A stretch of DNA of 64,000 bases from a virus (IMGVR_UViG_3300037047_000216:10078-74077), one strand, 5' to 3'; counted from the stretch's first letter, positions 39,030-59,047 are shown. Made by a program: numbers and translations. Notes: generated from the letters alone by a model not told the origin.

Positions 39030-39057
39030 CTACTCTGCGGGTGCGACAGATGATCCC
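39030..39057 (-). promoter_or_regulatory. Phage promoter motif upstream of nadD
   Basis: Exact motif copy. Confidence 0.7.
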
Positions 39058-39595: not shown

Positions 39596-39964
39596 CTAAA
39601 CCGTCCACCGCTCCTCAGGCGGCCAGCATGTGCAGTTCGAGTTGCGTTCCCGACAAGTCCCGCAGTAGTAACCCCCATTATAAGTGTAGATCGGGCTCTG
39701 GGGGTTCTCCCGCCACATCGGAGTGGGCAGTTTTTTGCCACAGAAGGGACAGAACTTCGGGCTCTCTTTCAGGAACCGAAACGGAGGGACCTCCATCTGA
39801 GCACTGCCTGACAGTACCCAGCGGGGGTTCCCGTCATCACCGCACTGGAGGGAGATCAGTCCAGTCTCTTGGGACGGAGGGCAACACCCCGGAATGATGA
39901 TCAATCGCCGGTAGGTGGGCTCGTTCTCAAACACGGGTTCTGTAGTCCACCTGATATCCATCAA
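39596..39964 (-). CDS. Cys-rich hypothetical protein
   Basis: FCPFCG, YCGTC. Confidence 0.55.
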   Translation of the reverse strand: MMDIRWTTEPVFENEPTYRRLIIIPGCCPPSQETGLISLQCGDDGNPRWVLSGSAQMEVPPFRFLKESPKFCPFCGKKLPTPMWRENPQSPIYTYNGGYYCGTCRERNSNCTCWPPEERWTV

Positions 39965-40836
39965 CCGACCTCGAAATCGATTCCCATGGCCTGAAGTTCT
40001 TTGTACCGCTCCCGGTCGAACCTGTACAGCTTTCCTGCTGGGCCACGATCCGAGGCCATGTTGGTTTCGGTGTCGATGAGCAGTCCGGATTTCAGTACCT
40101 GGCGTCGGAAGTTGCGCTTGTCAATCGAGTGACCCAGGATCACTTCGTATAGGCGCTGGAGCATCCCGAGGGAGAACTCCTCCGGGAGCAGACCGAGACC
40201 GATCGGGTGCCCTCGAACTTTCGACCGGAGACGTTCCAGCCCTTTCCGGACGATCTCCGCGTGATCGAAAGCCAGCGCAGGGTGGTTCTTGACGGGGAAC
40301 CACTCTGCTTTTCGGGCATCATCCGCGGCCTCGACCTTCATGTTGTCCGGGGACACGAGCGCGAGGTATGCAGTCGAAATCACGTACCCTCTGGGGTCAC
40401 GGTCCGGACGCCCGAACGTGTAAAGCTGCTCCAGGTAGGAGAGTTTTACGTGGGTCTCTTCCTCCAGTTCCCGTCGCACGCAGGCGTCGAGATCCTCACC
40501 GAGGTTGAGGAAGCCACCCGGGAGCGCCCAGAATCCGTAGAACGGTTCGTTCTCCCGCCCCCGCATGATCAGCAAGATGACGAGTTCGTCGTTCAGGAGT
40601 CCGAACAGCACCGCGTCCGTCGTGTTGTCCGCTTTTGGAAACTCGTAGACATGACATCTCCGAAGGAAATCCACGAATTGGTCAAGATCCATCCCCGCGG
40701 GAACGACAGGCTGCGAGACGTGGCCGAAAAGAGACCCCTCGGTCACCGGGTGCAACTGTCTCCGGGCCTGTTCCGCCATCTCCCGGAGCATCCGTTCGAC
40801 GGCCTGCTCCACGGTGCGACGTGTGGGCTTGCTCAT
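39961..40836 (-). CDS. nrtR: NrtR-family regulator (Nudix plus winged HTH)
   Basis: WALPGGF...CVRRELEEET, LEQLYTFGRPDRDPR, LAFDH, IDKRNFRR. Confidence 0.9.
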   Translation of the reverse strand: MSKPTRRTVEQAVERMLREMAEQARRQLHPVTEGSLFGHVSQPVVPAGMDLDQFVDFLRRCHVYEFPKADNTTDAVLFGLLNDELVILLIMRGRENEPFYGFWALPGGFLNLGEDLDACVRRELEEETHVKLSYLEQLYTFGRPDRDPRGYVISTAYLALVSPDNMKVEAADDARKAEWFPVKNHPALAFDHAEIVRKGLERLRSKVRGHPIGLGLLPEEFSLGMLQRLYEVILGHSIDKRNFRRQVLKSGLLIDTETNMASDRGPAGKLYRFDRERYKELQAMGIDFEVG

Positions 40837-41678
40837 GTGCGTGCCAGTGCCTCGTCCACGAGTACCTCCTGCGAGTACTCTGGGGTCTTCCTGTCGAAGA
40901 TGAAACCCTCCCGGTTGGTGACCTGGGTGAACGCCACCGGGATGCCCATCTCCTGCGTGTCCCATCGCACGACCACCAGATCCGGGTTGGCGCGGGCGTC
41001 GTGTTTCGGGGGGAGCGCTTTCAGTTCCGCCGTGGTGAACGGGCGAGCGACCCGGACACGGCGAACCCAGGTTCCCCGTTTCGCCCAGTCCGCGTAGAGA
41101 TCCCAGTCGATGTCCAGTTCATGCCGGAGCATCCGGATGATCTCGGCGGTGTCCTTCCCGTGGAGCCCCTTGTGGCTGAAGTGGGCCTGCCCGGCGGACA
41201 GGATGCTGTTCCGCGTCGCGTCCAGTTCCCTCCAGAGGAAGGTGTTGGCCGCTTCCGTCTGCGACGGAACGGCCCACACCCGGCAGTCGAACATGGGCAG
41301 CAGGTTCGCTTTCTCGGGCAGGAACGCCGGGAGGAACAGATTGAACACGGCGGTCGCCATGGCCGCCAGTACACTCGTCATCTTCTGGACGCGCCCGTCG
41401 AAAAAGATCTGGCTGCCCTCGTTCTCCTGGTGCCAGACGAGGGAGATCTCATCCGACTGGGTGTAACCCATCCGGGCGTTCGTTTCCTCCACCAGATGGC
41501 GGGTTACCCGCACCATGAGGCGATGGAAGCGCTCGTCGAAGGGCTTCTCCAGCCCCCGGCAGAACGTGTGGAAAGCGCGCCCATCCAGCCGCGCCATTAC
41601 GATGGAGTTGGGCGGGAACCGTCGTCCGGCTTCCTCGCTCTCGTACCCTTTCATCCGGTCGCCCAGCTTGTCGTCCAT
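40833..41678 (-). CDS. Thg1-like 3'-5' polymerase (tRNA-His guanylyltransferase family)
   Basis: RMKGYE, RLDGRAFHTF, YTQSDEIS, FDGRVQK, FDCR. Confidence 0.92.
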   Translation of the reverse strand: MDDKLGDRMKGYESEEAGRRFPPNSIVMARLDGRAFHTFCRGLEKPFDERFHRLMVRVTRHLVEETNARMGYTQSDEISLVWHQENEGSQIFFDGRVQKMTSVLAAMATAVFNLFLPAFLPEKANLLPMFDCRVWAVPSQTEAANTFLWRELDATRNSILSAGQAHFSHKGLHGKDTAEIIRMLRHELDIDWDLYADWAKRGTWVRRVRVARPFTTAELKALPPKHDARANPDLVVVRWDTQEMGIPVAFTQVTNREGFIFDRKTPEYSQEVLVDEALART

Positions 41679-41727
41679 GTGCCTCAGTCCTTGAGCATCG
41701 GACAAATCAATCCAGCCCCTACACAGG

Positions 41728-41943: not shown

Positions 41944-42324
41944 CTAACTCTTTACCGGAACCTTGTGCAGATTCCCGTCGGGGCCTCGTTCCACAGTCAC
42001 GTAAACGATCTCGGTCGCGGTCACGGCACAGGGGGCCTCCTGTCCGTCTCTGCTGGCCTCGATGTCTACCTGAACCGTGATGGATGTGTCTCCGATCTTT
42101 ACGAGGCTCGTGTAGAACGTGACCACGTCCCCGATCTGAACGGGACGGGTGAACTCGATCCCGTTCATGAACCGGGTCACGACATCGTGCTTGGTATGAC
42201 GCCGAGCTTCGACGGCGCCTGCGAGATCCATCTCCGCCAGAAGGGTTCCACCGAAAACCATCCCATGATGATTCGTGTCCCTGGGAAGCAGAATCCGGCG
42301 GATCGCAATGTGACGCTCGCTCAT
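41944..42324 (-). CDS. Acyl-CoA thioesterase (HotDog fold)
   Basis: LPRDTNHHGMVFGGTLLAEMDLA. Confidence 0.9.
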   Translation of the reverse strand: MSERHIAIRRILLPRDTNHHGMVFGGTLLAEMDLAGAVEARRHTKHDVVTRFMNGIEFTRPVQIGDVVTFYTSLVKIGDTSITVQVDIEASRDGQEAPCAVTATEIVYVTVERGPDGNLHKVPVKS

Positions 42325-43274
42325 GGTTCCTTCGGCAGTCCAGCCAGGGTGGCGTCCAGTTCCGTCCTACGCTTGAGCCCAGTCAGAAGCGGGTTTTCCT
42401 CCCAGTACTGGTTGATGCCGATCGCGGCACCCATCATGGCCCCAGCCACCGCAGCATTGGTGTCCGTATCCCCGCCCTCCCGAATGACCATGTCGAGGAT
42501 AGACTGGAATCGGTCGTCGTGCATGTCGTCGTACATGGCGTCGGTTCGGCGCTGGAACTCCCGCAGAGCCCAGAACCCGGCACCCGCACACTTGTAGGTG
42601 TATCCGATACTGCCCCGGGCGCCGAGTCTCAGATCCTGGATCCCCTCATTGGCATACGCCCGGATCTCAGCATCGTGCTTTTCCCCTGCCTCGATCCCGA
42701 TCTGGATCGCCGCCGGAATGGCCTCCCCACGGATCAAAGCAGCGATCGTGCAGGAGACCGCCACGGAACTTGCCACACAGCGGGGGTCGGCGTGAGTCAC
42801 CTTGCAGGCGAGAGCGGACATCCGCTCCGTCCAGGCATGATCCCATGGCCGAACAATGGCGGCACCGACGGTACGCATCACACCCCCATTGGGGGCTTTG
42901 ACGCGACCGCTGGACTCCCAAATCTCCTCTGCGATAGCCAGGGGCTCACAGAGATAGAGCGGGTGAGTCAGGATTTCGACCGTGAGGTTTCCAACCCCCC
43001 GGCCATCCTGGTGCAGCCAGTTCTGGAACCCCTCGGCCAGGAGCAGAACGACCGTGTCCGGATCATCCCCCGCCTCGGAGAGAGCCCGTGCCACAATGAG
43101 AGCCTGAGCCGTGTCATCGGTCCACTCCCCGGGCAAGAAATTTCCGCCCTTGGTTACGACCTGATAACGGGCGTGCTCCCCAGGTTTCAGATCACCCGAG
43201 AACTCATACCACGCACCGAGGGCATCCCCGATGGCCTGTCCATACAAAGCGCCTCTACGCAGATCTTTCATCAT
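42321..43274 (-). CDS. ADP-ribosylglycohydrolase (DraG/ARH family)
   Basis: GQAIGDALG, WTDDT, NGGVMR, THADP, GGDTDTNAAVAG. Confidence 0.95.
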   Translation of the reverse strand: MMKDLRRGALYGQAIGDALGAWYEFSGDLKPGEHARYQVVTKGGNFLPGEWTDDTAQALIVARALSEAGDDPDTVVLLLAEGFQNWLHQDGRGVGNLTVEILTHPLYLCEPLAIAEEIWESSGRVKAPNGGVMRTVGAAIVRPWDHAWTERMSALACKVTHADPRCVASSVAVSCTIAALIRGEAIPAAIQIGIEAGEKHDAEIRAYANEGIQDLRLGARGSIGYTYKCAGAGFWALREFQRRTDAMYDDMHDDRFQSILDMVIREGGDTDTNAAVAGAMMGAAIGINQYWEENPLLTGLKRRTELDATLAGLPKEP

Positions 43275-43288
43275 CTATCCTTCCGCCA

Positions 43289-43606
43289 TCACTCGAAGTG
43301 AACTTCTCCGCCCACTTTTTCCGAAACGAAACGACGAGCCTCGGCCTCGATCTCCGGGGGCAGGCCCAAGATCGTCCACCACTCCTCTGGGATGATGCAG
43401 TCGTCATCCAGTGTGTGAACGGGCAGCCCGAACCCCCGGATCTCGTCCTCGTCCCAGAGATTGTCCGGAATGAGGGCATCGAGAATGCCGTCCCTGGTGA
43501 AGTGGACGTGATCCAGATCCTCGTCGATGCCAAATCCTCGACGAAGCATCTCGAGTCCGTTCTTCGAGAGGGCTTCGAGAGGAAAGGTCACCCGGTACTT
43601 GGGCAT
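43289..43606 (-). CDS. Acidic hypothetical protein
   Basis: ORF in operon. Confidence 0.55.
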   Translation of the reverse strand: MPKYRVTFPLEALSKNGLEMLRRGFGIDEDLDHVHFTRDGILDALIPDNLWDEDEIRGFGLPVHTLDDDCIIPEEWWTILGLPPEIEAEARRFVSEKVGGEVHFE

Positions 43607-43609
43607 GGC

Positions 43610-45903: not shown

Positions 45904-47775
45904 TCAGGCAATCTCCACGAGCCACACGGTCTTGTTGTTGGCCACCCAGACCGCGGTCGGTCCGGAAACGAACACGCTGTCCCCGTCATTGACGAACGGC
46001 GCCGTGTCGACGAAAAGTTTCTCCTCCACGATGGCGCCCTGATCTGTTTTGAGGAGGAGCAGACCCTCCGAAGTCGGACACAGGATCTTGCCCCCGAACA
46101 CGCATTTCCCTTTGACACTGCGAAGCATCCGGACCTGATCCGGATCCCCCTCGGTCTGGGCAACCACCTGACCATGGACGTCGACGAGCACCATCACATG
46201 GATGATCTGACCGTTGCGTTCCTCCGCCCGGCTGAACAGGACATGCTGGTCACTGAACACGGCGTCCACGTCACGCACCTTACCTTGAGGCTGCGGGATA
46301 CCCACCGGGATCAGCCCGATTTTGCTGGGGAAGAATATCTGGTGGAACCACGTGTTCGCGGCCTGACTCACGGCGATGCCGAGGGACTCTCCGGCTTTGA
46401 CCCATGTGTGTCCGGGAAGCACCGATCCGAGCACCTGGGTGTTTCGGTACAGGTACAGCCCTTCGATCCGGTAGATCGCGGAGGAGGAGGAATCGAACAC
46501 CGGGAGGGTTCCGGAGACATCCGTGGACGTGCGCTGTTTGAGCGTTTCGTCCTCGATTTGGAGCAGGGTCCCGTTGCCAGCCCCGATCCACGTGGAACGC
46601 CCCTGCACCGAGAAACGGGTGTTGGGCGGCGGAGTGCTGTCCCAGACCTTCTTCCCGTCCTGCCGGTAAACGTTGCCGTTCTCCTCGTATACGATCTGGA
46701 TCCGTCCGTTCTGCACTCGCAGATGGCGGATGACGCCCCGGGTCTCGAAAACTCGGGTGGACTTGCAGGCTTTGTTGTACCGAATGGCCTCCACCACGAG
46801 TCCAGGGGCGGCGCATTTGGGGCACACGTTCCGGGCGTGCTCTTCCCCGCACTTGAGGCACTTCGTCCACTGGATCTGGAGCAGACTTTCGGGGAACACC
46901 CCCCGCAGATCCTGCTCGAACACTTTGATGAAGTGATGCACCAGATCGTCCGGGAGTCGGTCTGGCGGAATTACCCCATTGTACTTGACATCCGGGTGAA
47001 GGATGCTGATCCGGTTTTCAGCCCGGCGCAGATAGCCCCGGTGTTTCTTGTGCACGCCCCCGAATGGCAGCACGCACAGGAGGGACTGGAACAGGAGCGC
47101 CGTGAACGCATACCAGTCGGTGTCCGTGTTGAACAGACCGGCCACGTCCTTGTTGTAAAACCTCGGGTCCAGGAACCGAGGGGCAGCTACCACGCACGGG
47201 AGTCCGTTGAACTGCATGGAGTCGACGTCGATGACACGGATCACGGGCTGGGGATGGACGGCACACATCTCGTTGCCATCGTTCAAGTCCCCAACGATGA
47301 CGCGGAGAGCATGCAGTTTCACGAGGATGCTGTGCAGATCCCGAAGGAAGGTGACCACGTGATCGTGCTGGACGCCCAGCGTCGTGCGCTCCTTGAAGTC
47401 CGACAGCTTGTAGATCGGGAACATGCCGCCCAACAGGGGCATCGTGTACCCTACGATCTTGCCGGTCGTGTCCTTCACGAAATCGATGGGCGCCAGTACC
47501 CCCTCGGGCATGTTCTTCGGGAACGCCAGGACCTTGCGCTCTTTCAACTGGAGCGCCAGTTTGTGGGTCTTTTTCTCATCCGAGGTTCGGGCCGGATCGA
47601 GATCCTCGTTCCTGTGAAACAGCTTGAGGGCTTTGTTGTTGCCGAAACGGTAAACCGCCGCTTCTCCGCCCGCCCCGAGGAACGCGGATTTGTCATCCGG
47701 ATCCGCGAAAAAGCGGGTCGTCGCTCCCGTGGTTGCGTCCTCGACCAGTACAGTGCGGGACTTCAGGAACGACAT
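45904..47775 (-). CDS. TerY-P-type Ser/Thr kinase with zinc ribbon and beta-rich C-terminus
   Basis: LGAGGEAAVY, ALKLF, VGDLNDGN, IDVDS; CLKC..CPKC. Confidence 0.85.
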   Translation of the reverse strand: MSFLKSRTVLVEDATTGATTRFFADPDDKSAFLGAGGEAAVYRFGNNKALKLFHRNEDLDPARTSDEKKTHKLALQLKERKVLAFPKNMPEGVLAPIDFVKDTTGKIVGYTMPLLGGMFPIYKLSDFKERTTLGVQHDHVVTFLRDLHSILVKLHALRVIVGDLNDGNEMCAVHPQPVIRVIDVDSMQFNGLPCVVAAPRFLDPRFYNKDVAGLFNTDTDWYAFTALLFQSLLCVLPFGGVHKKHRGYLRRAENRISILHPDVKYNGVIPPDRLPDDLVHHFIKVFEQDLRGVFPESLLQIQWTKCLKCGEEHARNVCPKCAAPGLVVEAIRYNKACKSTRVFETRGVIRHLRVQNGRIQIVYEENGNVYRQDGKKVWDSTPPPNTRFSVQGRSTWIGAGNGTLLQIEDETLKQRTSTDVSGTLPVFDSSSSAIYRIEGLYLYRNTQVLGSVLPGHTWVKAGESLGIAVSQAANTWFHQIFFPSKIGLIPVGIPQPQGKVRDVDAVFSDQHVLFSRAEERNGQIIHVMVLVDVHGQVVAQTEGDPDQVRMLRSVKGKCVFGGKILCPTSEGLLLLKTDQGAIVEEKLFVDTAPFVNDGDSVFVSGPTAVWVANNKTVWLVEIA

Positions 47776-47778
47776 GGA

Positions 47779-48606
47779 TCAGCCCTCCGACCTTCTCTGA
47801 AGACGAATGAACGTCGTGTCGTCATCGAGAGGGGACTTTTTCCACCCCAGGTAGGGGCCGCAGGCTGCGAGTTTGCGCTGCCCCAGCGTGTACCCGTCCG
47901 GGCTCATGTATACGTTGTCGTAAAACTGGAGCAGTCCTCCGAGGGGTTCGCCACCATGCGCCGGGTGGTTTTTCTTGGAAAGGAACCGCTCCATCCCGTC
48001 CGATCCGATGAGAACCCGCTGTACGTCCACCGTGGGGATCTCGATCTCGATCTGGAACGGATCCGATGTCCACCCGGTCAGCAGAGCATAACCAGGATAG
48101 TTCGGGCGATTGTCCTCGTCGATGACCACCGGATCCTGGTCATTCACGTGCCACAGTCCGTCCCCTCGACGGAAAATGAACGTGTTCGTCGGGGTCATGA
48201 CGACCCCCATGACCGTGGCCAGGAGTGCCTGCGGGACGTAAGACTCCGGCGGTTCCCCCATGGCCTGCACGACTCCGAACAGGAGCCGCTCCAAACGCCG
48301 CTGTGCCTCGCGGAGCATCCCCTCGGTAGTCAGGAGGGCGCTATACCCTCCTCGCCGTTCTGGGGGCAGTGTGACCGTTTGCGCGCGTAGCGAGAGGAGG
48401 TCCAGCAGAGTGCGGCACAGGAATCGGGACTGGAGACGTGCTCCCACCTCGGACTCTGGTGCCGAACTGCACCCGTCGCAGATGATGCCTACGAACCCGA
48501 GTTCATGTTGACCCATCTGGTGGGCGTCCTGGTTGTTGACGCCCCGGGCAACATGGCTGGATCCTGGGACAGATCCAGCCATGCTCTGGATAGTATCGGT
48601 GATCAT
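47779..48606 (-). CDS. PP2C-like protein phosphatase (TerY-P type)
   Basis: GSSH...NNQDA, ICDGCSS, GD, GSDG, DDTT. Confidence 0.88.
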   Translation of the reverse strand: MITDTIQSMAGSVPGSSHVARGVNNQDAHQMGQHELGFVGIICDGCSSAPESEVGARLQSRFLCRTLLDLLSLRAQTVTLPPERRGGYSALLTTEGMLREAQRRLERLLFGVVQAMGEPPESYVPQALLATVMGVVMTPTNTFIFRRGDGLWHVNDQDPVVIDEDNRPNYPGYALLTGWTSDPFQIEIEIPTVDVQRVLIGSDGMERFLSKKNHPAHGGEPLGGLLQFYDNVYMSPDGYTLGQRKLAACGPYLGWKKSPLDDDTTFIRLQRRSEG

Positions 48607-48630
48607 CGAAACCCCTCCGGTGTCAGGCGC

Positions 48631-49500
48631 TCAGGAGAAGAAAGTCGAGGTCGACCCCGGCTGGGTCTTGCCGGACGAGACCTGCCGCACGGAGGAGGAG
48701 ACCCGCATGAACGCCCGCGCGATGTTCTGGTCGACTCCGATGGCGCCGTCCGGGAACCCGATCTCCTTCGCGGGAGCCCAGAAATGGCTGGCCTGCGGGC
48801 GCTTCGGGTCGGCGTTCTGATCGATCCCCATGAAAGCGAGGATGAACCGCTCCGACTGCAGCAGATCGGATGCGACCTTGGCAACGTCTCCCGCCACCTT
48901 CTGGCGCTGCTGGCCATAGAGGACGTTTTCCCCGCCATCCGTGATTACGATGCAGAGACTCGTGGTCGGGACGGGGAACGGGCTTTCCTCTTCGTTGTAG
49001 TGGTGGTGCGCGATGGCTGCCGACAGCACCTCCTGCCACGACTGGAACAGCCGCGTAGATCCGCCCTGCGGGTTGTACTGGTGCTCGCCGGGGCCGGGAC
49101 GCCCGACCGACAGGCGATTCACCTGGGCAAGCGGAACGGCGGGGTGAACGAGCCTCAGTGTCGAGTCGAACTCCCACAGGGAGAGCATCATCTCGTTCTT
49201 GCGCGAATCGCGGTTGAGGTCGTTCAGCATCTCGTTGTAGCCCTCGACGACCTTGGCCTCGTTCCCCAGCATGGATGCGGACGTGTCCAGCAGGAGCCAG
49301 ATGTGGAGCGCCTCCTGCGCCTGGGCGTGCGTGATGTCGTGTCCCGCGGCGCCGAGCGCGACCAACTGGTTCGCGCCACCCGCCAGCACCTGACTGGACA
49401 CGGAGGAGAGAAGGGGAGCCTCGCCCTGGGACGCGCCCGCGAGCAGGCTCTGGAGTCCGGACAGCCCGGAAATGGGCACGCTCTTGCTGCCATTGCTCAT
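48631..49500 (-). CDS. vWA-domain protein (TerY-like)
   Basis: LLLDTSASM MIDAS, GGST, VITDG. Confidence 0.8.
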   Translation of the reverse strand: MSNGSKSVPISGLSGLQSLLAGASQGEAPLLSSVSSQVLAGGANQLVALGAAGHDITHAQAQEALHIWLLLDTSASMLGNEAKVVEGYNEMLNDLNRDSRKNEMMLSLWEFDSTLRLVHPAVPLAQVNRLSVGRPGPGEHQYNPQGGSTRLFQSWQEVLSAAIAHHHYNEEESPFPVPTTSLCIVITDGGENVLYGQQRQKVAGDVAKVASDLLQSERFILAFMGIDQNADPKRPQASHFWAPAKEIGFPDGAIGVDQNIARAFMRVSSSVRQVSSGKTQPGSTSTFFS

Positions 49501-49561
49501 CTTGAGTCCTTTTCCGATCCTAGGTGCCAGGGAATTCCCTGGCACCTAAGTCGAACCTGCG

Positions 49562-50683
49562 TCAGGCGGCCAGCGCCTGCTCCAGGAAGTTGTCGGTGCT
49601 CTCGACCACGTTGATGCCCTCGCTCGCCCACCGCTTGAAGGTCTTCTCCGCGACCGCGGGGAAGTTCAGCGGGCTGTCCGGGTCGTTCTCCGTGCCGGGG
49701 ACCGCCGGGATCGGGTCCATGCAGTCCTTCATGATGTACAGCCGCTTGACGAGGTCGGGGCTGCGCTTCTCGAACCAGTAGCGAAGCTGGTCGACCGTCT
49801 TGCCCACGCAGAAGGGCGGCGCGGCCTCGCCCACGATGACGACCACCTTGTGGCGCAGGAGCAGGTCGATGAACTCCATCCGCACCGCGTCCCCGACCAT
49901 CTCGCCGTCGATCTGGGACACTTCCTCGCCGCAGATCCCGTAGCACTCCGAGAACTGGCGGTACCCCTTGATCTCCACGTTCGCCTCGGAGTACCGGGCG
50001 ATCTCGTGGAACAGGGACACCTCGCTCAGGATCGGCATGAGCGGGTGGTGCGTGCTGCCCAGGCGGCAGTGAATCGGCCAGATCGTCAGGGGCGTGCTGC
50101 CCTGCGCGGCCAGCGCCCGGATGTACCCGAGTGCCTTCTTCTGGCCGAAGATCGACGTGTAGTGCCGGTTCATGTCCGGCTGCCCGTTCAGCCCGAGCGG
50201 CCGGATGACGCCCGCCACCTCCACGAGGACCGTCAGCGGCGGCGCCGGGTTGCCGTCCTGGTCACGCCAGAAGTCCGGGTGGAAGATCTGCCACACCCGG
50301 TGGGTGTCCAGCGAATCCACCCACTGGCCGATCAGGTTGAGGTTCTCGACGCCCCAGCGAGCGGTCCGGAACACGGTCTTCTCGGCGTTCGGGACGTAGA
50401 GGCTCCCGCCCGTGTTCTTGAACCAGAGCCCCGGGATGTTGGCATCCCCGGGCGGGGCGCAGAAGCCGGTCTGCATGTCGACCCGGACGCAGATCGCGGA
50501 ACCCCCGAGGCGCGAGGGATCTTTGACGGCAGGCGGGATCCCGTGTGCCTTGCGGTAGGCACGGGCTTCGGCGGCCACCTCCTGCTCACGGGTCATCCAC
50601 AGGAGACCCGCGGCCTCCGGGTGATCGAGGAAGGGCTCGAAGAACTTCGGGTAGGGCAGTCCATTTGGCATCAGGCGCGTCAT
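49562..50683 (-). CDS. pncA: Nicotinamidase-like cysteine hydrolase (isochorismatase family)
   Basis: VDMQTGF, DTH, WPIHC, IKG, GEA...FCV give a D-K-C triad. Confidence 0.75.
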   Translation of the reverse strand: MTRLMPNGLPYPKFFEPFLDHPEAAGLLWMTREQEVAAEARAYRKAHGIPPAVKDPSRLGGSAICVRVDMQTGFCAPPGDANIPGLWFKNTGGSLYVPNAEKTVFRTARWGVENLNLIGQWVDSLDTHRVWQIFHPDFWRDQDGNPAPPLTVLVEVAGVIRPLGLNGQPDMNRHYTSIFGQKKALGYIRALAAQGSTPLTIWPIHCRLGSTHHPLMPILSEVSLFHEIARYSEANVEIKGYRQFSECYGICGEEVSQIDGEMVGDAVRMEFIDLLLRHKVVVIVGEAAPPFCVGKTVDQLRYWFEKRSPDLVKRLYIMKDCMDPIPAVPGTENDPDSPLNFPAVAEKTFKRWASEGINVVESTDNFLEQALAA

Positions 50684-50731
50684 GTCTCTATCTCCTCTCT
50701 GGCATATCCGTCCGGGGTTGAACCGGGCGAC

Positions 50732-50959
50732 TCAGTAGCTCACGTTGAACTTCTCGTTGAAAAACGGGTCCAGATCCCTTCCGCTCTCGGCGGTCTGCGG
50801 ATCCACCCGGGGCAGGCACATCCGCCGGATCGCCCTCAGGATTTCTTTTTTCTCCGTGCCCCTCTGGTGAAAGACTCCGAGCCAGTACTGCTCACCGGGC
50901 ACCAGAGGGCGTCCCAGTTCTGCGGCGATCCAGTCGCTAACTGTTTCGCACGTTTCCAA
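50732..50959 (-). CDS. Small hypothetical protein
   Basis: GGAGG before TTG start; 3' part of track ORF 50732..51256. Confidence 0.45.
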   Translation of the reverse strand: METCETVSDWIAAELGRPLVPGEQYWLGVFHQRGTEKKEILRAIRRMCLPRVDPQTAESGRDLDPFFNEKFNVSY

Positions 50960-50979
50960 GATGCCCTCCAGGATCAGGC

Positions 50980-52098
50980 TCAGTTCCGCTTGTCGGCCAC
51001 CACCGGGGGAACGCCCGCCGGGGTCAGGTCGTCGCTCAGGATCCCCTCCTGGACGAGGCCCTTGCGGCTTCCCAGGTTCGGGATGTTCGGGTTCATCTTG
51101 TGGCGCGAGATGCGCTCCGCGTAGCGGGCCGCCTTCAGGAGCGCCACGACCTCGTCGGCCGAGATGCCCTCGAACAGCCGGTGCGCCGGGGCGATCTGGT
51201 AGAGCTTCTCCCAGGCGGCCTCCCGGGCGTTCCAGACGATCTGGTCGTCGTCGCACACGAGGCCGGTGTCCGGATTCGAGAAAATCCGCTCTTTCACCCA
51301 GTCGATGAACCGGGCGATGCGCTCCAGCGTCCCGAACCGGAGGATCTCGCCGGTGTCCGGGTCGACCCGGCCGTAACCGAAGGGCACCTTGTACACGGCC
51401 AGCATCTCGGCCTCGTCCGAGTGCCCGTCCCCGATGCCCCAGAGGTCGGGGCTGGGCGTCGCGATGATGGTGTCCCGCATCACGGCCTTGACTTCGGGGC
51501 CGAGCCGCTCACCGAGGCCCCAGGCAAGCTGCCAGACTTCGGTCTTGCTCAGCATGTCGAGCGGGTTCGTCCCGACTGAGCCATCCCCGAACCTGTTGTA
51601 GAATCGGATGATCCGGTCTTCGCACTCGTTCCCGGTGCCGTGCCGGATGCCGTCGCCTTTCAGGAGCAGGAAGAACATGCCGATCGGGGTCCGCATCATG
51701 CTGCGGAGCGATCCGCCGATGGTGCGCTTGTCCGCGAACCGCTGCTGGGCGTCCTTGTACTCCGGGGAGTCGAACCCGTGGGCGCGCCCGATGGACCCGA
51801 GCGCCTTGCCCACGAGGGCGTCGTACACGTCGGTGTAGTCGTCGTCGTTGAGCGGGATGCCCAGCGCTGCGGCCAGCCGCTGGGCACGGTCGGTCTGTGC
51901 CCCGCTCGTGCTGAACCGCGAGTGGACGAGCGTGACGTTTTCGGGGCCGAGGGCGATCCACAGCAGGCAGGCCATGACCGCCGAGTCGATCCCGCCCGAC
52001 AGGTCCAGTTCCGCCTTCTTGAAGCCGTGCTTCTCGTGATAGGCGCGGATCGCGGCCACGCGATTGTCGATGAGTCGGTTGACATCCAGGACCGGCAT
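50980..52098 (-). CDS. nadE: NH3-dependent NAD+ synthetase (no glutaminase domain)
   Basis: LSGGIDSAV, GTGNECE...FYNRFGDG, KTEVWQLA, PSPDL. Confidence 0.9.
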   Translation of the reverse strand: MPVLDVNRLIDNRVAAIRAYHEKHGFKKAELDLSGGIDSAVMACLLWIALGPENVTLVHSRFSTSGAQTDRAQRLAAALGIPLNDDDYTDVYDALVGKALGSIGRAHGFDSPEYKDAQQRFADKRTIGGSLRSMMRTPIGMFFLLLKGDGIRHGTGNECEDRIIRFYNRFGDGSVGTNPLDMLSKTEVWQLAWGLGERLGPEVKAVMRDTIIATPSPDLWGIGDGHSDEAEMLAVYKVPFGYGRVDPDTGEILRFGTLERIARFIDWVKERIFSNPDTGLVCDDDQIVWNAREAAWEKLYQIAPAHRLFEGISADEVVALLKAARYAERISRHKMNPNIPNLGSRKGLVQEGILSDDLTPAGVPPVVADKRN

Positions 52099-52140
52099 CG
52101 AGTCTCTCCTTCGTAGTTCGAGGTCTACCTAGCAGTTTCC

Positions 52141-52168
52141 CTACTCAGGCAGCGTTCTGCATGATCCC
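52141..52168 (-). promoter_or_regulatory. Phage promoter motif upstream of nadE
   Basis: Exact motif copy. Confidence 0.7.
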
Positions 52169-53650
52169 AAGGATCTGCTGTTCCCGTTCGGCCGTCAACT
52201 TTTCGATCAGTGCCTTGGTCGCCGGGCTGTGGATGACCCGGCAGGGTGCGTTCTGGCTGAACGCGGCGGCCCATGCCTGCTGCGCCCGGTAGTCGTAACC
52301 CTTGTCCGTCAGCAGGACGTAACCCTCCGGGGGCGTCTCCCCGAACTGGCCGATCATGCCCTCTTCCCGCTCCATCCCGTTCCACGTCCAGGGATCGGGG
52401 CGGAAAATCACGGGGCACCCCGGGACCGAACCCTTGCCGGGCGTACCGGAGAACTTCATCCGGGGGTTGCATCCGGACATGGTCAGCTTGTAGACCGCGG
52501 AGGCCACGTCTCGGCTGTACGGCGACCGGGACGGGCCGGACACGATGAATCCGCCGTAACCGTAGAACCGCCGGGAAGCCGCGAGTCCGAGGTTCTCACA
52601 GAGGAGTTCGTTCCGAACGGTACGCTCCGCCGTGTACCCGTCCTCGAAAATGTAATTCGGTCGGATGCCGAATTCCTTCTCTGCCGCGAGGAACCGCCGA
52701 AGCTGGTCGTCCTGATCCCCCGAGTCGAATCGGACGGAACAGGGGCGGCTGAGATCCTCCCGCATCACCTGGATGGCTGCCGGGATCCCGGAGCGGATCG
52801 GGTCGTACGTGTCGAACAGGTAGCTGGGCGGTTCCGGACGCATGTCGCGGATGGCGCGGAACCCATCCAGATCCGAACCCCAGCGCTGCTGGTGCTCGTG
52901 CCCGGTCGTTCCCACCGGGATCATGTAGAGTTCCCAGGCCAGGAACACGTTCGAGGTCTTGTTGATGCCGTACTTCCGGCAGACCTTCAGGGCGATCCGG
53001 TGCTGCTGGATGCAGGTCGCGGCGCGCATCCCGACTTCGAACGCCCGTTCCCCCTGACTTTCGAGCGCCTGGAGGATCTCCCGGACACGGCTCCCGACAT
53101 CGGTCTCGTAAGCGTTCTGATCGACCCTGATCTCAACGGTCCTCCCGAGCGCCTCCGCCACCAGCCGGATGATGGTTGCCTCGTCCTCGCACGTGACGTC
53201 GAAAGTCTGCACCCCGTTCATCATCGCCGTGGCGACCTGGATGGGGTAGTGCAGCATGATGCTGAGGGGTTCGAGCCAGGAGGCGAGGAACTGCGGTCCC
53301 TTGACCGTGAACACCGGCTCGCCGCCCAGCACCCACGTGCCCTGCTTGATGGCATGGATTTCCAGCGGTTTGGTCAGGGCGACCTCTTCCGCCGGATTCA
53401 TCCCGTAACCGTTCGCCGTGAGGAACGCCTGCTCCTTGCTGTTGGCCGGTTCGGGCACCAGCAGGCGGACGATTTTCTCCATGTCGAACGGGATGTACCA
53501 GGGGCCTCCCTTGCGCAGGACGAGGTAGAACTTCTCGGGGCGCAGCGGGGCTCCCGCCTGCGACATGGCGAACTTGTATGCGTCGGACATCAGAGTCGAC
53601 GGACGGTCGCGTCCGATGAGCGCTCGAACGAATGCTTGCTCGCGGTCCAT
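52145..53650 (-). CDS. pncB: Nicotinate phosphoribosyltransferase
   Basis: SDAYK, EVGMR, TSNV, GTTGHE, FDTYD, VRFDSGD; the GT.xHE motif is PncB-type rather than NadV/Nampt-type. Confidence 0.85.
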   Translation of the reverse strand: MDREQAFVRALIGRDRPSTLMSDAYKFAMSQAGAPLRPEKFYLVLRKGGPWYIPFDMEKIVRLLVPEPANSKEQAFLTANGYGMNPAEEVALTKPLEIHAIKQGTWVLGGEPVFTVKGPQFLASWLEPLSIMLHYPIQVATAMMNGVQTFDVTCEDEATIIRLVAEALGRTVEIRVDQNAYETDVGSRVREILQALESQGERAFEVGMRAATCIQQHRIALKVCRKYGINKTSNVFLAWELYMIPVGTTGHEHQQRWGSDLDGFRAIRDMRPEPPSYLFDTYDPIRSGIPAAIQVMREDLSRPCSVRFDSGDQDDQLRRFLAAEKEFGIRPNYIFEDGYTAERTVRNELLCENLGLAASRRFYGYGGFIVSGPSRSPYSRDVASAVYKLTMSGCNPRMKFSGTPGKGSVPGCPVIFRPDPWTWNGMEREEGMIGQFGETPPEGYVLLTDKGYDYRAQQAWAAAFSQNAPCRVIHSPATKALIEKLTAEREQQILGIMQNAA

Positions 53651-53683
53651 GAATTCCCCTCGTCTCCCCGACCTTCCGAAACG

Positions 53684-53698
53684 GTGTATCTCTTACAC
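53684..53698. promoter_or_regulatory. Candidate NrtR operator
   Basis: Palindrome GTGT-N7-ACAC 34 nt upstream of pncB; matches the GT-N7-AC core. Confidence 0.45.
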
Positions 53699-53767
53699 AG
53701 ATAGCCGTGTCAAGGGTACACCGTTCTTTTTGGCGTCCAGGGGGTGCTTTTTTGCCCTCACCCTCAG

Positions 53768-53795
53768 ATACTCTGACCCCAGCGAGGATGATCCC
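53768..53795 (-). promoter_or_regulatory. Phage promoter motif (GAGTAT variant) upstream of pncB
   Basis: Motif copy; back-to-back with 53831. Confidence 0.65.
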
Positions 53796-53830
53796 AGATC
53801 CTGCACGAAGGTGCAGGTGGCTGGTTTTTC

Positions 53831-53858
53831 GGGATCATTCCCGATCTTTTCAGAGTAG
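53831..53858 (+). promoter_or_regulatory. Phage promoter motif
   Basis: Exact motif copy upstream of ardC. Confidence 0.7.
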
Positions 53859-53894
53859 TCTAGATGGACGGGGACGGGGAACCCCGCTGAGGAA

Positions 53895-54821
53895 ATGATG
53901 GCTCGCCAGTTCACGCCGCGCGATCGGTACGAGACGGTCACCAACCAGATCGTGGCGGCGCTGGAGCGTGGTGTGGCTCCCTGGGTGCGTCCCTGGAATG
54001 CGGACGCGGGTCGGCCGCGGAACGGGCACACGGGGCACGTGTACCAGGGGATCAACACCTGGGTCTGCTGGGCCAGCGGCTACGGAGACTCCCGCTGGTT
54101 CACGTTCAAGCAGGTCCAGGAGTACGGGAGCAGCCACGTTCGCAAGGGGGAGAAGGGCACCCACATCGTGAAGTGGGTGTTCCTGGAGGTCGAGCGCAAG
54201 CAGGACGACGGCACCATGAAGAAGGAACGGGTGCCCCGGCTGTTCACCTACGTCGTGTTCAACTACGAGCAGATCGAGTGGGACCCCAACCACAAGCCCA
54301 AGGGGCTTCCGGTGTCCGACATCGACCCGGAGAAGTCCTACACCGAGGCCGCCGTTTTCGTGCGGCGGCAGAACGCCAAGATCAAGCACGGCAGCGAGAA
54401 GGCGTGCTACTCCCCCCGGCACGACGAGATCTGGCTGCCGGATCCGAGCGCGTTCAAGACGGTCGAGGGCTACTGGGGAACCAGTTTCCACGAACTGGGC
54501 CACTGGACGGGGCACGTGAGTCGCTGCGCCCGCGACCTGACCGGCCGGTTCGGGGAGGAGAGCTACGCCGCCGAGGAACTGGTGGCGGAACTGACGGCCG
54601 CTTTCCTCTGCGACGAGTTCGGGCTGCAGGGGAACCTCCAGCACCCCGAGTACATCGGTAGCTGGTTGCGGGTGCTGAAGGGCGACAAGTACGCGGTGTT
54701 CACCGCTGCGCGCCTCGCCCGTGAGGCGATGGCCTTCATGAAGGGTGAGGCCAAGGACACGGTGGACGAGCAGACGGCCGAGCCCGACCCGAACGACACC
54801 GGGCTCTCCCAGGCCGCCTGA
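53895..54821 (+). CDS. ardC: Antirestriction protein ArdC (ssDNA-binding plus zincin-like domain)
   Basis: PWVRPW, YQGIN, WFTFKQ, VRKGEKG, FHELGHWTG, YAAEELVAEL, YIGSWL. Confidence 0.92.
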   Translation: MMARQFTPRDRYETVTNQIVAALERGVAPWVRPWNADAGRPRNGHTGHVYQGINTWVCWASGYGDSRWFTFKQVQEYGSSHVRKGEKGTHIVKWVFLEVERKQDDGTMKKERVPRLFTYVVFNYEQIEWDPNHKPKGLPVSDIDPEKSYTEAAVFVRRQNAKIKHGSEKACYSPRHDEIWLPDPSAFKTVEGYWGTSFHELGHWTGHVSRCARDLTGRFGEESYAAEELVAELTAAFLCDEFGLQGNLQHPEYIGSWLRVLKGDKYAVFTAARLAREAMAFMKGEAKDTVDEQTAEPDPNDTGLSQAA

Positions 54822-57179: not shown

Positions 57180-57836
57180 ATGTTCGACTGCACGACGGAA
57201 CGATACGACGAGATTTATGCCCCCTGGCTGGCAAACCCGGGGGAGCTTCTGGATCTCGGCAACTATATCCCAGGGCGGGATCACTTGCTGGATCTCTGTG
57301 GGGGTTCCGGGATCGTTGCCTTGGAGGCACTGCGTAGGTCCTCCGAAAAGTCACGGAAATCCTCGATTGCCGTTCTGGACTTGAATCCCCGTGGAGGATT
57401 CAACCCCGACGACATCTCAGAGACCCACGGTCAGGCACAACACGCGTCGCTGATCTACAAACCGGGGACGTTCAATCTGGTCATCTGCCGTCAGGCACTG
57501 GGCTATCTGGATCTCGTTCCCGTGTTTCGCGCAGTGGGGCATGTGCTCGCTCGGGGAGGACGTTTCGTCTTCAACAGTTTCCTCCAGCCCCGACGCTATG
57601 CCACGAAGCATTACACGTATCGGGACCAGACATACGCGGAAGCACATCTGTATCTGATGGGTCGGGTGTTCCATGTTCAGTGTAAACTGACCGGAGTCCC
57701 GGGCGCCGATGTCAGTGTGTTTCGTTACCACTCTCCCGAAACCATCAGGAAAGCGCTCTGGGACAGCGGGCACAAGTGGCTGATCCGTGAGGACTGCAGG
57801 GATCGCAGCGTCCACTGGCTTTGCGTGAAGAGGTAA
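57180..57836 (+). CDS. Class I SAM-dependent methyltransferase
   Basis: LLDLCGGSG, VLDLN, FNLVICRQALGY, LARGGRFVF. Confidence 0.8.
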   Translation: MFDCTTERYDEIYAPWLANPGELLDLGNYIPGRDHLLDLCGGSGIVALEALRRSSEKSRKSSIAVLDLNPRGGFNPDDISETHGQAQHASLIYKPGTFNLVICRQALGYLDLVPVFRAVGHVLARGGRFVFNSFLQPRRYATKHYTYRDQTYAEAHLYLMGRVFHVQCKLTGVPGADVSVFRYHSPETIRKALWDSGHKWLIREDCRDRSVHWLCVKR

Positions 57837-57841
57837 CGGAC

Positions 57842-59047
57842 ATGGCACGGGTGCTGATCACGGGGGGTCCCGTCTATGGATGTCTTGATGACAACAAGCT
57901 CGTCAGCAACAGGGTCCGGGGCATCTGGGCATGTCAGTTCGCGGGGTACCTCTCGGCAAGGGGGCACTCCGTCACACTGCTCCTCGCTGACACGATGCCT
58001 GCGTTCCAGGATCTCAACACCCTGATTGGGGACAGGCCCGGTCGTGGGCCTCTCTGTCGCAATGGGGCAGCGGTCGACGGGGAGCCCGGAGCCATCCAGG
58101 TCGTCCGCCACGACGGGTACGAGAGCTACCGGGAGCAGTGTTTCGCGCTCGCCAAAACCCACGACGCCGCCGTACTCGCAGCGGCGGTCGTCAACTGGAT
58201 CCCCGTAGAGCCAGTCAAGGGCAAGATGCCCACGGCGGGCTACAAGGAGGGGGACATCATCCAGGTGCCCTTCGTCCTCGCCCCCCGAGTCATCCAGGGG
58301 ATGAAATCCCAGAACCCGAAGCTGACCCTCATCGGCTGCAAGATGCTGATCGGGTCGACGGAGGAAACGCTGATCGACTCCGCTTACTCCGGAGTCCTGC
58401 TCCCGGCACGTTGCAATGCTGTCGTGGCGAACGACATGGGCGCCGGGTTGAAGTGCAAGTACATCGTCAACAAAGACCGCAGCGTGCAGAAATTCGACAA
58501 TGACTTCGACGGGTTCTTCGGGGCACTCGCAAACATCGTCGAGGATGAGCATTTCCACACGGAGTTCATTGAGCAGCAGGAGACCCCCGAAGGGATCCAC
58601 ATGATGCTCAGGAAACCTTGCCAGGAGTTTGACCGGATCGTGGAACGGAACCGAAACAAGTTTCTGCCGGTCGAGGGCGGACGGGTGTTCGGGTCGGTTG
58701 CGGTTCACGCCTGCGGGCTCGGTTGGCTAGTCTCCCCCCGGGAAAAGGGTGAGTTGTTCACGTCCAAGGACGCGACGATCGTACAGTGGATGAGTGTCAG
58801 GGAGCGGGCTGTCCGCGTGCCTGAGGGCTGGAGCAAGCCCACGTTGAACGCCCCGCTGCTCATCCGTTTCGCGATGCAGTTCAACTACAACGCCGTGTTG
58901 CACTACCACCAGCTTGTCGAAATGTTGCCGACGTTGCCTTACGCGCAGCCGGGCACGGTGCGGGACAACTGCCGGGAACTGCCCGAGGAATGTCGCAACG
59001 GGTTCAACATCAAGGGGCACGGGTGCGTCATCCCCGTATTGCCGTGA
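57842..59047 (+). CDS. CoaB/DFP-like phosphopantothenate-cysteine ligase domain fused to a C-terminal aldolase-II-like domain
   Basis: VLITGG...D...VSN...G, LAAAVVNW, LIGCK, VVAND. Confidence 0.65.
   Translation: MARVLITGGPVYGCLDDNKLVSNRVRGIWACQFAGYLSARGHSVTLLLADTMPAFQDLNTLIGDRPGRGPLCRNGAAVDGEPGAIQVVRHDGYESYREQCFALAKTHDAAVLAAAVVNWIPVEPVKGKMPTAGYKEGDIIQVPFVLAPRVIQGMKSQNPKLTLIGCKMLIGSTEETLIDSAYSGVLLPARCNAVVANDMGAGLKCKYIVNKDRSVQKFDNDFDGFFGALANIVEDEHFHTEFIEQQETPEGIHMMLRKPCQEFDRIVERNRNKFLPVEGGRVFGSVAVHACGLGWLVSPREKGELFTSKDATIVQWMSVRERAVRVPEGWSKPTLNAPLLIRFAMQFNYNAVLHYHQLVEMLPTLPYAQPGTVRDNCRELPEECRNGFNIKGHGCVIPVLP

Follow-up and report, generated by a model that had tools for sequence, protein, structure and literature searches.

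A predicted deamidating NAD+ salvage module, probably from a huge groundwater phage

Introduction

Several phage-encoded enzyme sets that restore NAD+ have been described. NARP1 acts on ADP-ribose with Adps and Namat, and NARP2 proceeds via NMN with Nampt and Nmnat (Osterman et al. 2024), while NARP3 uses nicotinamide riboside by means of PnuC and NadR (Yan et al. 2026, PMC13464706). Furthermore, Preiss-Handler clusters were reported in 'NAD-jumbo phages', e.g. pncB-nadD-nadE of Kuafu_71, and gene sets for NAD+ synthesis and NAD+ consumption were described together (Li et al., Microbiome 2024, PMC11662467). In the cultivated Bacillus phage G (JN638751, 497 kb), all four enzymes of a route from nicotinamide via nicotinate to NAD+ are annotated together with a Nudix protein within 7 kb (gp273-gp283). 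No functional study of this NAD gene region was found in the literature.

Here, a stretch of 64,000 nucleotides (the window) from the IMG/VR viral record IMGVR_UViG_3300037047_000216 was analysed. The original prediction for this DNA had claimed four NAD genes (pncA, pncB, nadD and nadE) and nrtR, and all of them were recovered as intact minus-strand ORFs at or near the predicted positions.

Results

The features of the region are compiled in Table 1. The start of nadD was shifted to position 39006, and 10.5 kb separate this gene from pncA. The motif GGGATCAT-N14-GAGTAG, regarded as a phage promoter, occurred in 19 exact copies compared to none in shuffled sequences. As predicted, pncB, nadE and nadD each have their own copy, the one at pncB with a single mismatch (GGGATCAT-N14-GAGTAT). 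No copy was found before pncA. The genes for NadE, the small ORF, PncA, the vWA protein, the PP2C phosphatase and the kinase probably form one transcription unit. The small ORF of about 75 aa between nadE and pncA had no family match.

Table 1. Position of the NAD+ genes, their neighbours and the promoter motif copies in the window
Feature	Position	Strand	Basis or remark
NaMN adenylyltransferase, nadD, 186 aa	38446..39006	-	TIGR00482, motifs, PDB matches
Promoter motif, exact	39030..39057	-	upstream of nadD
NrtR-type Nudix/winged-helix regulator, nrtR	39961..40836	-	PF00293, PF21906
thg1	40833..41705	-	4-nt overlap with nrtR; promoter motif upstream at 41728
ADP-ribosylglycohydrolase (ARH)	42321..43274	-	PF03747, 164 bits
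623-aa protein, N-terminal Ser/Thr protein-kinase catalytic domain	45904..47775	-	PDB kinases, motifs
PP2C-type protein phosphatase	47779..48606	-	PF13672, 59 bits
vWA-domain protein	48631..49545	-	complete MIDAS (D87xSxS91, T164, D203); PDB E-values weak, ~1e-3
Long-form nicotinamidase, pncA-like, 373 aa	49562..50683	-	profile, AF2 model, Foldseek, conserved residues; activity predicted
Small ORF, ~75 aa	50732..50959	-	TTG start after GGAGG; fills nadE-pncA gap
NH3-type NAD+ synthetase, nadE, 372 aa	50980..52098	-	PF02540, motif, PDB matches; PP-loop domain and ~130-aa C-terminal extension
Promoter motif, exact	52141..52168	-	43 bp ahead of nadE, overlapping the 3' end of the PRT gene
Divergent NAPRT-like type II phosphoribosyltransferase (PRT), pncB-like, 501 aa	52145..53650	-	homology, motifs, fold, gene context
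Promoter motif, one mismatch	53768..53795	-	upstream of PRT gene (pncB)

The 373-aa protein is predicted to convert nicotinamide to nicotinate and NH3. It had no match in Pfam, including PF00857, or in NCBIfam at E ≤ 0.01 and falls into a divergent clade of long forms, which carry insertions of about 150 aa. However, a profile of its family (A1, 70 sequences) matched yeast Pnc1 at 5.7e-12 as well as other nicotinamidases. The AF2 model (pLDDT 96.4) has an isochorismatase-like fold with solved nicotinamidases as its closest relatives, since all of the top ten Foldseek hits were nicotinamidases, nine of them with a TM-score of 0.68-0.78 on the target. The Asp-Lys-Cys triad D69, K239 and C292 is invariant or near-invariant among the 70 homologs and pairs in the HMM alignment with D8, K122 and C167 of Pnc1. 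Nicotinamidases are separated from other amidases of the isochorismatase fold by a metal-binding Asp-x-His and a distal His. These ligands are conserved as D126, H128 and H205, and the segments SLD126-T-H128 and WPIH205 align to RDWH and WPVH of Pnc1. The nicotinamidase with a D-K-C triad named in the original prediction was confirmed at the level of residues, profile, model and structural matches. Near the catalytic Cys, in the oxyanion-hole segment, the protein reads AAPPFC, while 69 of the 70 homologs have A-x-S-H-C. This corresponds to a one-residue insertion and changes of S to P and H to F, and it is unique in the family. A second groundwater sample, from a different study, contained the same sequence including this variant. 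The changes beside the catalytic Cys could alter the nicotinamidase activity.

The 501-aa PRT would join nicotinate and PRPP to NaMN. Its NCBIfam matches were exclusively NAPRT models, the best with 83 bits compared to cut-offs of 297-776. It had no match in Pfam, including PF04095, and precomputed PF04095 assignments exist for just a few members of its family. At about 1e-21, the family profile matched two NAPRT structures (2f7f and 4yub); the value for NAMPT was 8e-6. With the AF2 model (pLDDT 93.4), Foldseek found a NAPRT match at 2e-19, and the scores for NAPRT and NAMPT were similar. The motif GTTGH251EH is invariant in the family and aligns to GTHAHS of 2f7f, which contains the autophosphorylated His of GT-x-x-H. 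A second motif, KTSNV, corresponds to ATSNV of E. faecalis NAPRT and lies at what is presumably the position of Asp219 in NAMPT. Asp219 is the specificity determinant of NAMPT (PMC7096376). As the NAPRT cut-offs were missed and Foldseek scored both enzyme types similarly, the assignment of nicotinate as substrate draws on the profile ranking, one motif and the gene context with nicotinamidase and NadE as neighbours.

NadE matched PF02540 with 65.5 bits (cut-off 21) and has the P-loop SGGIDS; it reached none of the NCBIfam equivalog cut-offs. Its PDB relatives are NAD+ synthetases throughout, and the glutaminase domain is absent. Homologs occupy the same slot in the related loci L011-L028. NadD exceeded the TIGR00482 cut-off of 112.45 with 118.7 bits and contains the motifs GGAFNPPHVAH and ISSTEIR. 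NadD-type adenylyltransferases made up 17 of its 18 PDB matches (best 1kam, 6e-24), the remaining one being the uncharacterized 3h05. The regulator matched PF00293 with 64 bits and PF21906 (NrtR_WHD) with 69 bits, but NF050029 with only 162 bits compared to a cut-off of 400. Its Nudix box is nearly intact, and a search for an NrtR operator found none. Homologs of the ADP-ribosylglycohydrolase adjoin NrtR and NadD in three relatives (L017, L019 and L028).

Co-occurrence across phage genomes, proposed as a check of the original prediction, was borne out. The order PRT-NadE-PncA was observed at 13 of the 19 PRT-anchored IMG/VR loci, i.e. on approx. 11 distinct viral contigs of 35-619 kb, often with NrtR, NadD and ARH downstream. 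Such repeated occurrence across many viral contigs shows that these genes are not neighbours by chance. NadD was located near the module in each of the five large relatives searched (four 92-100% complete, one with terminal repeats). The pairing also exists in bacteria. On the chromosome of Myxococcus landrumensis (CP071091), the PRT adjoins a long-form nicotinamidase, and Desulfatibacillum aliphaticivorans (KE386982) shows the order PRT, PncA-like, NrtR. This adjacency argues that the PRT uses the product of the nicotinamidase.

Behind pncA, the vWA, PP2C and kinase genes follow at distances of 16, 24 and 3 bp. The 623-aa kinase matched 191 PDB kinases (best 3e-9), and its G-loop, K51, D163xxxxN168 and D183 are invariant. 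The linkage of pncA to these genes is kept in four relatives (L005, L010, L023 and L029), even where pncA lacks PRT or NadE as a direct neighbour.

Discussion

We consider it likely that the region is a self-contained deamidating NAD+ salvage module and that its source is part of a huge (∼0.5 Mb) groundwater phage. The long-form nicotinamidase would convert nicotinamide to nicotinate, which the divergent NAPRT-like enzyme would join with host PRPP to NaMN. Adenylylation by NadD would lead to NaAD and amidation by the ammonia-dependent NadE to NAD+. The module genes would be transcribed from the phage's own promoter motif, with an NrtR-type regulator and an ADP-ribosylglycohydrolase close by, and this predicted flux may keep NAD+ available in the infected cell. 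Homology, motifs, fold and conserved synteny give good support to the originally predicted route from Nam via NA, NaMN and NaAD to NAD+. NadE is required on the deamidated route only. The sole PRT is NAPRT-like, and the deamidated route is indicated by NadE together with a nicotinamidase. The score of the PRT (83 bits compared to at least 297), the similar Foldseek scores for NAPRT and NAMPT, the AAPPFC variant, the distance of nadD from pncA, the negative search for an NrtR operator, the lack of structural phage genes on the fragment and the weak or missing terminase and capsid matches in relatives were weighed against this reading.

That the contig instead derives from a cellular chromosome or a giant plasmid-like element, with genes for ordinary host salvage, is very improbable. 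The ∼74-kb fragment contains no virion or structural phage genes, the relatives showed weak matches or none to the Pfam models of terminase and HK97 capsid, and the PRT tree interleaves viral and cellular sequences. However, the lineage of the IMG/VR viral record is that of a huge phage, its nearest database matches are 'huge phage' records of 460-595 kb, and the relatives are 92-100% complete according to CheckV, one with direct terminal repeats. The window carries 34 tRNAs and a tmRNA amid short ORFs without assigned function, the promoter motif with its 19 occurrences is private, and endolysin-like, ArdC, Thg1 and RNA-ligase genes are found on the contig. It is also unlikely, though less so, that the isochorismatase-fold protein mainly serves a vWA/PP2C/kinase signalling cassette, removing nicotinamide or hydrolysing another amide as signal or inhibitor, and is not a dedicated feeder of NAD+ synthesis. 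The close spacing of these genes behind pncA, their linkage in four relatives, even where a PRT or NadE gene does not adjoin, and the atypical active-site neighbourhood speak for such a role. Against it, the protein retains its catalytic triad and the metal site specific to nicotinamidases, the top structural matches are nicotinamidases only, and bacteria without the vWA/PP2C/kinase triad still pair the nicotinamidase gene with the PRT.

Within the salvage reading, the module may have been selected for rebuilding NAD+ after NADase defence or for feeding the phage's own NAD+ consumers. The latter, general auxiliary metabolism that raises or maintains NAD+ for NAD+-consuming phage enzymes and host metabolism over a lengthy infection cycle, as suggested for 'NAD-jumbo phages' and with no specific link to defence, is quite conceivable, if short of probable. 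An NAD+-dependent DNA-ligase adenylation domain was found in all four near-complete relatives, synthesis and consumption sets occur together in the phages of Li et al. (PMC11662467), and the module is widespread among huge phages and has long resided in them. It leaves the co-travelling nicotinamidase step, NrtR and the ADP-ribosylglycohydrolase unexplained, however. Counter-defence is proposed more tentatively: the module would mainly rebuild NAD+ from nicotinamide freed by NADase defences of the SIR2, TIR or SEFIR type and would represent a fourth pathway of NAD+ reconstitution, with NrtR sensing the co-product ADP-ribose and the glycohydrolase clearing ADP-ribose adducts. The route begins at nicotinamide, the product of NADases, and the nicotinamidase is a step beyond plain Preiss-Handler synthesis. 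NrtR and the ADP-ribosylglycohydrolase are linked to the module here and in L014, L017, L019 and L028, the neighbouring genes for ArdC, Thg1 and an RNA ligase belong to counter-defence or repair, and NARP1-3 are experimental precedents. On the other hand, no publication testing a deamidating route against NADase defences was found in the literature, PRPP and at least two ATP would be spent on a route that is slower than either NARP1 or NARP2, bacteria use the same operon for ordinary housekeeping salvage, and the relatives carry NAD+ consumers of their own. Because they encode the NAD+-dependent DNA ligase, general NAD+ supply accounts for the data just as well as counter-defence; both roles are not mutually exclusive. 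The effect on sirtuin feedback that the original prediction suggested for the removal of nicotinamide is speculative.

Like NARP1, NARP2 and NARP3, the module is a phage-encoded set of NAD+-restoring enzymes, and NARP2 likewise starts from nicotinamide. In contrast, these three systems are experimentally validated and have neither a nicotinate intermediate nor NadE; the claim that NARP1 and NARP2 bypass nicotinate holds and extends to NARP3. The hallmarks of NARP1 (the PRPS-like Adps, Pribosyltran_N) and NARP3 (PnuC) gave no match on the contig and in four near-complete relatives. The place of a third reconstitution route, which the original prediction assigned to this pathway, is already taken by NARP3 (PMC13464706). 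Likewise, a four-gene phage pathway is not new, as phage G has the full set and Preiss-Handler clusters were published in 2024 (PMC11662467).

The 'NAD-jumbo phages' share with the window the clustered pncB, nadD and nadE for the synthesis of NAD+ from nicotinate, the co-occurrence of NAD+-consuming enzymes and a prediction by annotation only. They are gut phages, and in their description (PMC11662467) the word nicotinamidase is absent and pncA is mentioned in passing only. The window differs by divergent forms of both PRT and nicotinamidase that Pfam misses, by the order PRT-NadE-PncA with nadD 10 kb away, and by the linkage to NrtR, ADP-ribosylglycohydrolase and the vWA/PP2C/kinase triad. 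Phage G likewise combines NUDIX, isochorismatase/PncA-like, NAPRT, NaMN adenylyltransferase and NAD synthetase proteins. Its enzymes, however, are of the canonical short form (gp277 is 27% identical to the window's PRT over half its length), the gene order is different, a KptA-like gene is present and vWA, PP2C or kinase genes are not annotated. The NrtR-regulated pncB-pncA operons of bacteria encode a PRT of the same divergent family (41% identical) and, directly downstream, a long-form nicotinamidase that likewise belongs to the family found here (30-35% identical); NrtR lies close by. They are cellular, though, lack NadE between the PRT and nicotinamidase genes, and have neither the phage promoter motif nor vWA/PP2C/kinase genes at their loci. 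The pncA-vWA-PP2C-kinase linkage, conserved in relatives, is a less-described feature of the region.

Identification of the NAD+ genes

The genes for the phosphoribosyltransferase (PRT, pncB-like, 501 aa), NadE (372 aa) and the long-form nicotinamidase (pncA-like, 373 aa) are adjacent on the minus strand with a GC3 of 0.85-0.94, and a codon-position GC screen selected all three as real genes. The original prediction had placed them side by side with the expected motifs and had also located NadD and NrtR; profiles, motifs and fold confirmed the genes and supported the pathway assignment.

Features of the NAD+ gene region and its neighbours
Feature	Coordinates	Strand	Basis or remark
nadD	start 39006	-	186 aa; both NadD signature motifs
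Promoter motif, nadD	39030	-	motif search
NrtR	39961-40836	-	NUDIX and NrtR winged-helix domains; overlaps thg1 by 4 nt
DUF4419 (262 bits), 105-aa ORF, ADP-ribosylglycohydrolase (ARH), 4HBT thioesterase, Thg1 (tRNA-His guanylyltransferase)	40833-44644	-	run between kinase gene and NrtR
vWA-PP2C-Ser/Thr-kinase triad	45904-49545	-	directly 3' of pncA; successive gaps 16, 24 and 3 bp
Nicotinamidase, long-form	49562-50683	-	family profile, conserved residues, AF2 model, Foldseek
AAPPFC segment of nicotinamidase	49805-49831	-	residues 285-293
Small ORF, ~75 aa	50732-50959	-	in apparent 296-bp nadE-pncA gap; GGAGG Shine-Dalgarno, TTG start
nadE	50980-52098	-	PF02540, 65.5 bits; SGGIDS PP-loop
Promoter motif, nadE	52141	-	motif search
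PRT, NAPRT-like	52145-53650	-	NCBIfam NAPRT models, family profile, motifs, model
Promoter motif, pncB	53768	-	motif search; one mismatch
CoaB-like protein (DFP C-terminal domain)	57821-59047	+	kept upstream of PRT gene in related loci L011, L014, L025, L027
RNA ligase with PHA02142 OB domain	60426-61526	+	kept upstream of PRT gene in L011, L014, L025, L027

The nicotinamidase had no match in Pfam, NCBIfam or a single-sequence PDB search and a family profile was therefore required. It has more than 1,000 homologs, and certain myxobacterial members are already named nicotinamidase. The profile built from 70 sequences matched yeast Pnc1 best (5.7e-12), followed by Mtb PncA and the nicotinamidases of A. 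baumannii and P. horikoshii. The catalytic residues Asp69, Lys239 and Cys292 are conserved in the 70 homologs, and the metal ligands Asp126, His128 and His205 are likewise conserved in the family. The AF2 model had a pLDDT of 96.4, and the ten best Foldseek matches were all nicotinamidases. Beside the catalytic Cys, the window protein alone (1/70) carries AAPPFC with a one-residue insertion at the place of the near-invariant A-x-S-H-C of the family. No homopolymer frameshift was present in the DNA at this site, and the same letters were reproduced in an independent groundwater sample. A 7-sequence alignment applied as locus probe retrieved three viral loci only.

Within NCBIfam, the PRT matched NAPRT models only, with 83 bits and thus far under the cut-offs. 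A 40-sequence family profile matched the NAPRT structures 2f7f and 4yub at ~1e-21, compared with 8e-6 for NAMPT, where the match was confined to the N-terminal domain. The invariant GTTGHEH of the family was aligned to the NAPRT phospho-His motif, and its KTSNV motif is the counterpart of ATSNV in E. faecalis NAPRT. Asp219, the specificity-defining residue of NAMPT, presumably lies at the position of KTSNV. The role of Asp219 in NAMPT specificity was confirmed in the literature (PMC7096376). The PRT model (pLDDT 93) was assigned to the type II PRT fold by Foldseek, which did not separate NAPRT from NAMPT. A reading of the PRT as NARP1 Namat or as Nampt was rejected because no Adps is present, NAPRT comes first in the profile search and both NadE and PncA are linked. 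We infer that the enzyme would use nicotinate, the product of the nicotinamidase, and gene context is the strongest argument for this.

All PDB relatives found for NadE were NAD+ synthetases. The glutaminase domain is absent, so that NadE would be of the ammonia-dependent type; it has a C-terminal extension of ~130 aa. NadE is required on the deamidated route only. NadD had its best PDB match in the NaMN adenylyltransferase of B. subtilis (6e-24). The small ORF between nadE and pncA had no Pfam match; extra DNA separates these two genes in several relatives, too.

Promoters and transcription

The window has 19 exact copies of a private promoter-like motif, GGGATCAT-N13-15-GAGTAG, whereas 100 shuffles gave none. 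Separate copies for pncB, nadE and nadD had been proposed from the sequence and were all recovered. The copy of nadD is situated inside its longest ORF, which upholds the start originally given and marks it as the true one. No copy was found before pncA or anywhere between 52141 and 45484; therefore, nadE, the small ORF, pncA and the vWA, PP2C and kinase genes probably share one transcription unit. Neither sigma-70-like promoters nor terminator-like sites at a frequency above shuffles were detected in 49400-54000.

Back-to-back copies of the motif (53768-53858) lie between the divergent pncB (minus strand) and an ArdC-like anti-restriction gene (53895-54821, plus strand) and would drive both. 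A 46-bp imperfect palindrome, AACGGTGTA...TACACCGTT (53680-53725), lies downstream of the pncB promoter motif and ahead of the pncB start codon; it may act as an operator or form a hairpin in the 5'-UTR. Near the other NAD genes, the half-site of this palindrome was no more frequent than expected by chance, and a shared NrtR operator was not found.

The triad downstream of pncA and other neighbours

The vWA protein has a complete MIDAS motif, the PP2C phosphatase is the second gene after pncA, and the 623-aa protein has an intact N-terminal Ser/Thr-kinase core whose profile matched 191 PDB kinases (best 3e-9). Linkage of PncA, kinase and PP2C is retained in the related loci L005, L010, L023 and L029. 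The triad resembles TerY-P systems, and no literature tie between a TerY-P-type triad and a nicotinamidase was found. The linkage of nicotinamidase, vWA, PP2C and kinase is an under-described feature that hints at regulation. Apart from this, a 139-aa protein encoded at 61523-61942 (plus strand) carries a prokaryotic N-terminal methylation (type IV pilin-like) motif, here in a phage.

Source of the DNA

The IMG/VR record has a length of 74,077 bp, of which the window covers bases 10078-74077, and its CheckV completeness of 14% implies a genome of ~0.5 Mb. The window contains 34 tRNA genes and a tmRNA, throughout on the minus strand, as well as accessory genes typical of huge phages, namely, ArdC-like anti-restriction, Thg1, RNA ligase, endolysin-like peptidase and DNA methyltransferase. 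A megablast search with the region among 50,697 phage records revealed no close phage. In the phage database, relatives of the nicotinamidase occurred only in metagenomic records that lack annotation; three of these are 460-595 kb long. Among the relatives, Terminase_6N and HK97 capsid gave no Pfam matches and the TerL_ATPase model gave weak matches only. The sample originates from a groundwater metagenome; a second groundwater sample, collected for another study, also contained the window DNA, with no differences over the covered part. None of the sequencing runs listed as carrying it was an RNA run.

Conservation and exchange

Gene context was compared with the PRT family as anchor in IMG/VR and a scan of 10-kb flanks. 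Of the 19 PRT-anchored loci, 13 share the gene order PRT, NadE, PncA on a single strand; they represent ~11 distinct contigs of mostly 190-620 kb. Further downstream there are often homologs of the 623-aa protein, NrtR, NadD and the ADP-ribosylglycohydrolase. When whole records were searched, NadD lay within ~12 kb of the module in all five large relatives, four of which are 92-100% complete and one of which is a 436-kb record with direct terminal repeats.

Variants of the module were seen as well. The 436-kb NCBI metagenome contig L002 has the order PRT, NAD synthase, PncA, NrtR; its NAD synthase (L002:8909-9991) aligned with the window NadE at the P-loop only and looks like a same-slot replacement, non-orthologous or extremely divergent. 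The viral contigs L017 (497-kb) and L018 (372-kb) carry PRT-NadE-NadD-NrtR-ARH with no nicotinamidase within 10 kb, which would be a plain Preiss-Handler variant. Members of these two divergent families adjoin each other in bacteria, too: the Myxococcus landrumensis chromosome has a PRT (41% identity) directly upstream of a long-form nicotinamidase, and Desulfatibacillum has the order PRT, PncA-like, NrtR.

Viral and cellular sequences are interleaved in a rough PRT tree, which suggests repeated exchange of the module between phages and bacteria. GC3 is strongly heterogeneous across the window genes (about 0.55 to 0.94), with the NAD genes, ArdC and RNA ligase at the top of the range; expression level or origin may be the cause. 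Recent horizontal acquisition, suggested by the GC3 of 0.85-0.94 in three genes, was rejected as main explanation since the module is conserved at ~50% identity across the huge-phage clade and high GC3 is common to other window genes.

Proposed function

The biochemical route from nicotinamide via nicotinate to NAD+ is well supported by gene identities and context, and would follow the order originally proposed (Nam -> NA -> NaMN -> NaAD -> NAD+). PRPP for the PRT step would have to be supplied by the host.

Depleting NAD+ is one of the main ways in which bacteria counter phages, and there is experimental proof for three phage pathways that rebuild it. The module may be retained for counter-defence against NADases: their product nicotinamide is its starting substrate, and NrtR, the ADP-ribosylglycohydrolase and other counter-defence genes are linked to it. 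It may also be retained for general NAD+ supply, as the bacterial version of the operon is housekeeping and each of the four near-complete relatives has a gene for an NAD+-dependent DNA ligase. The two explanations are mutually compatible, and no experiment deciding between them was found in the literature. Sir2-type enzymes are inhibited by their product nicotinamide, the removal of which would if anything relieve inhibition.

A more far-reaching proposal unites PRT, NadE, nicotinamidase, vWA, PP2C, kinase, NrtR, NadD and ARH, an ensemble conserved in huge phages, in a fourth NAD+ reconstitution system that would be under regulation, respond to damage and overcome NADase defences. Here, nicotinamide from SIR2/TIR effectors would be recycled via nicotinate, NrtR would serve as the sensor of ADP-ribose, and a TerY-P-like phospho-switch would govern the nicotinamidase or targets in the host. 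As a whole, this reading is rather unlikely. The counter-defence idea is straightforward to test, and the outcome would distinguish a fourth counter-defence from plain auxiliary metabolism.

Comparison with known systems

NARP1 and NARP2 consist of Adps and Namat and of Nampt and Nmnat, respectively, and nicotinate, PncA and NadE are not mentioned in their description (Osterman et al. 2024). NARP3 (2026) combines PnuC and NadR (PMC13464706). A PRPS-like Adps, the hallmark of NARP1, and PnuC are absent from the contig and four near-complete relatives; thus, the deamidating route is distinct from all three, as had been claimed for NARP1 and NARP2. A search for 'NARP4' yielded nothing relevant, and no functional test of the four-enzyme route was found in the literature.

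The claim of novelty as a third route was overstated, given NARP3 and the phage gene sets already on record. Bacillus phage G encodes an isochorismatase/PncA-like protein, NAPRT, NaMN adenylyltransferase, NAD synthetase and a NUDIX protein within 7 kb; a 2025 paper noted its PncA-like gene and did not draw the pathway link. Complete salvage or Preiss-Handler pathways were reported in 174 of 668 gut jumbo phages, with clustered pncB-nadD-nadE and phage pncA mentioned in passing (Li et al. 2024, PMC11662467). The deamidating route goes unmentioned in two Iyer/Aravind surveys and in Al-Shayeb 2020. The four-enzyme route is widespread in huge phages and annotated in the cultivable phage G; as a set of phage genes, it is not novel. 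The window is a new divergent environmental instance, in which enzyme forms unseen by Pfam bear the pathway in environmental huge phages.
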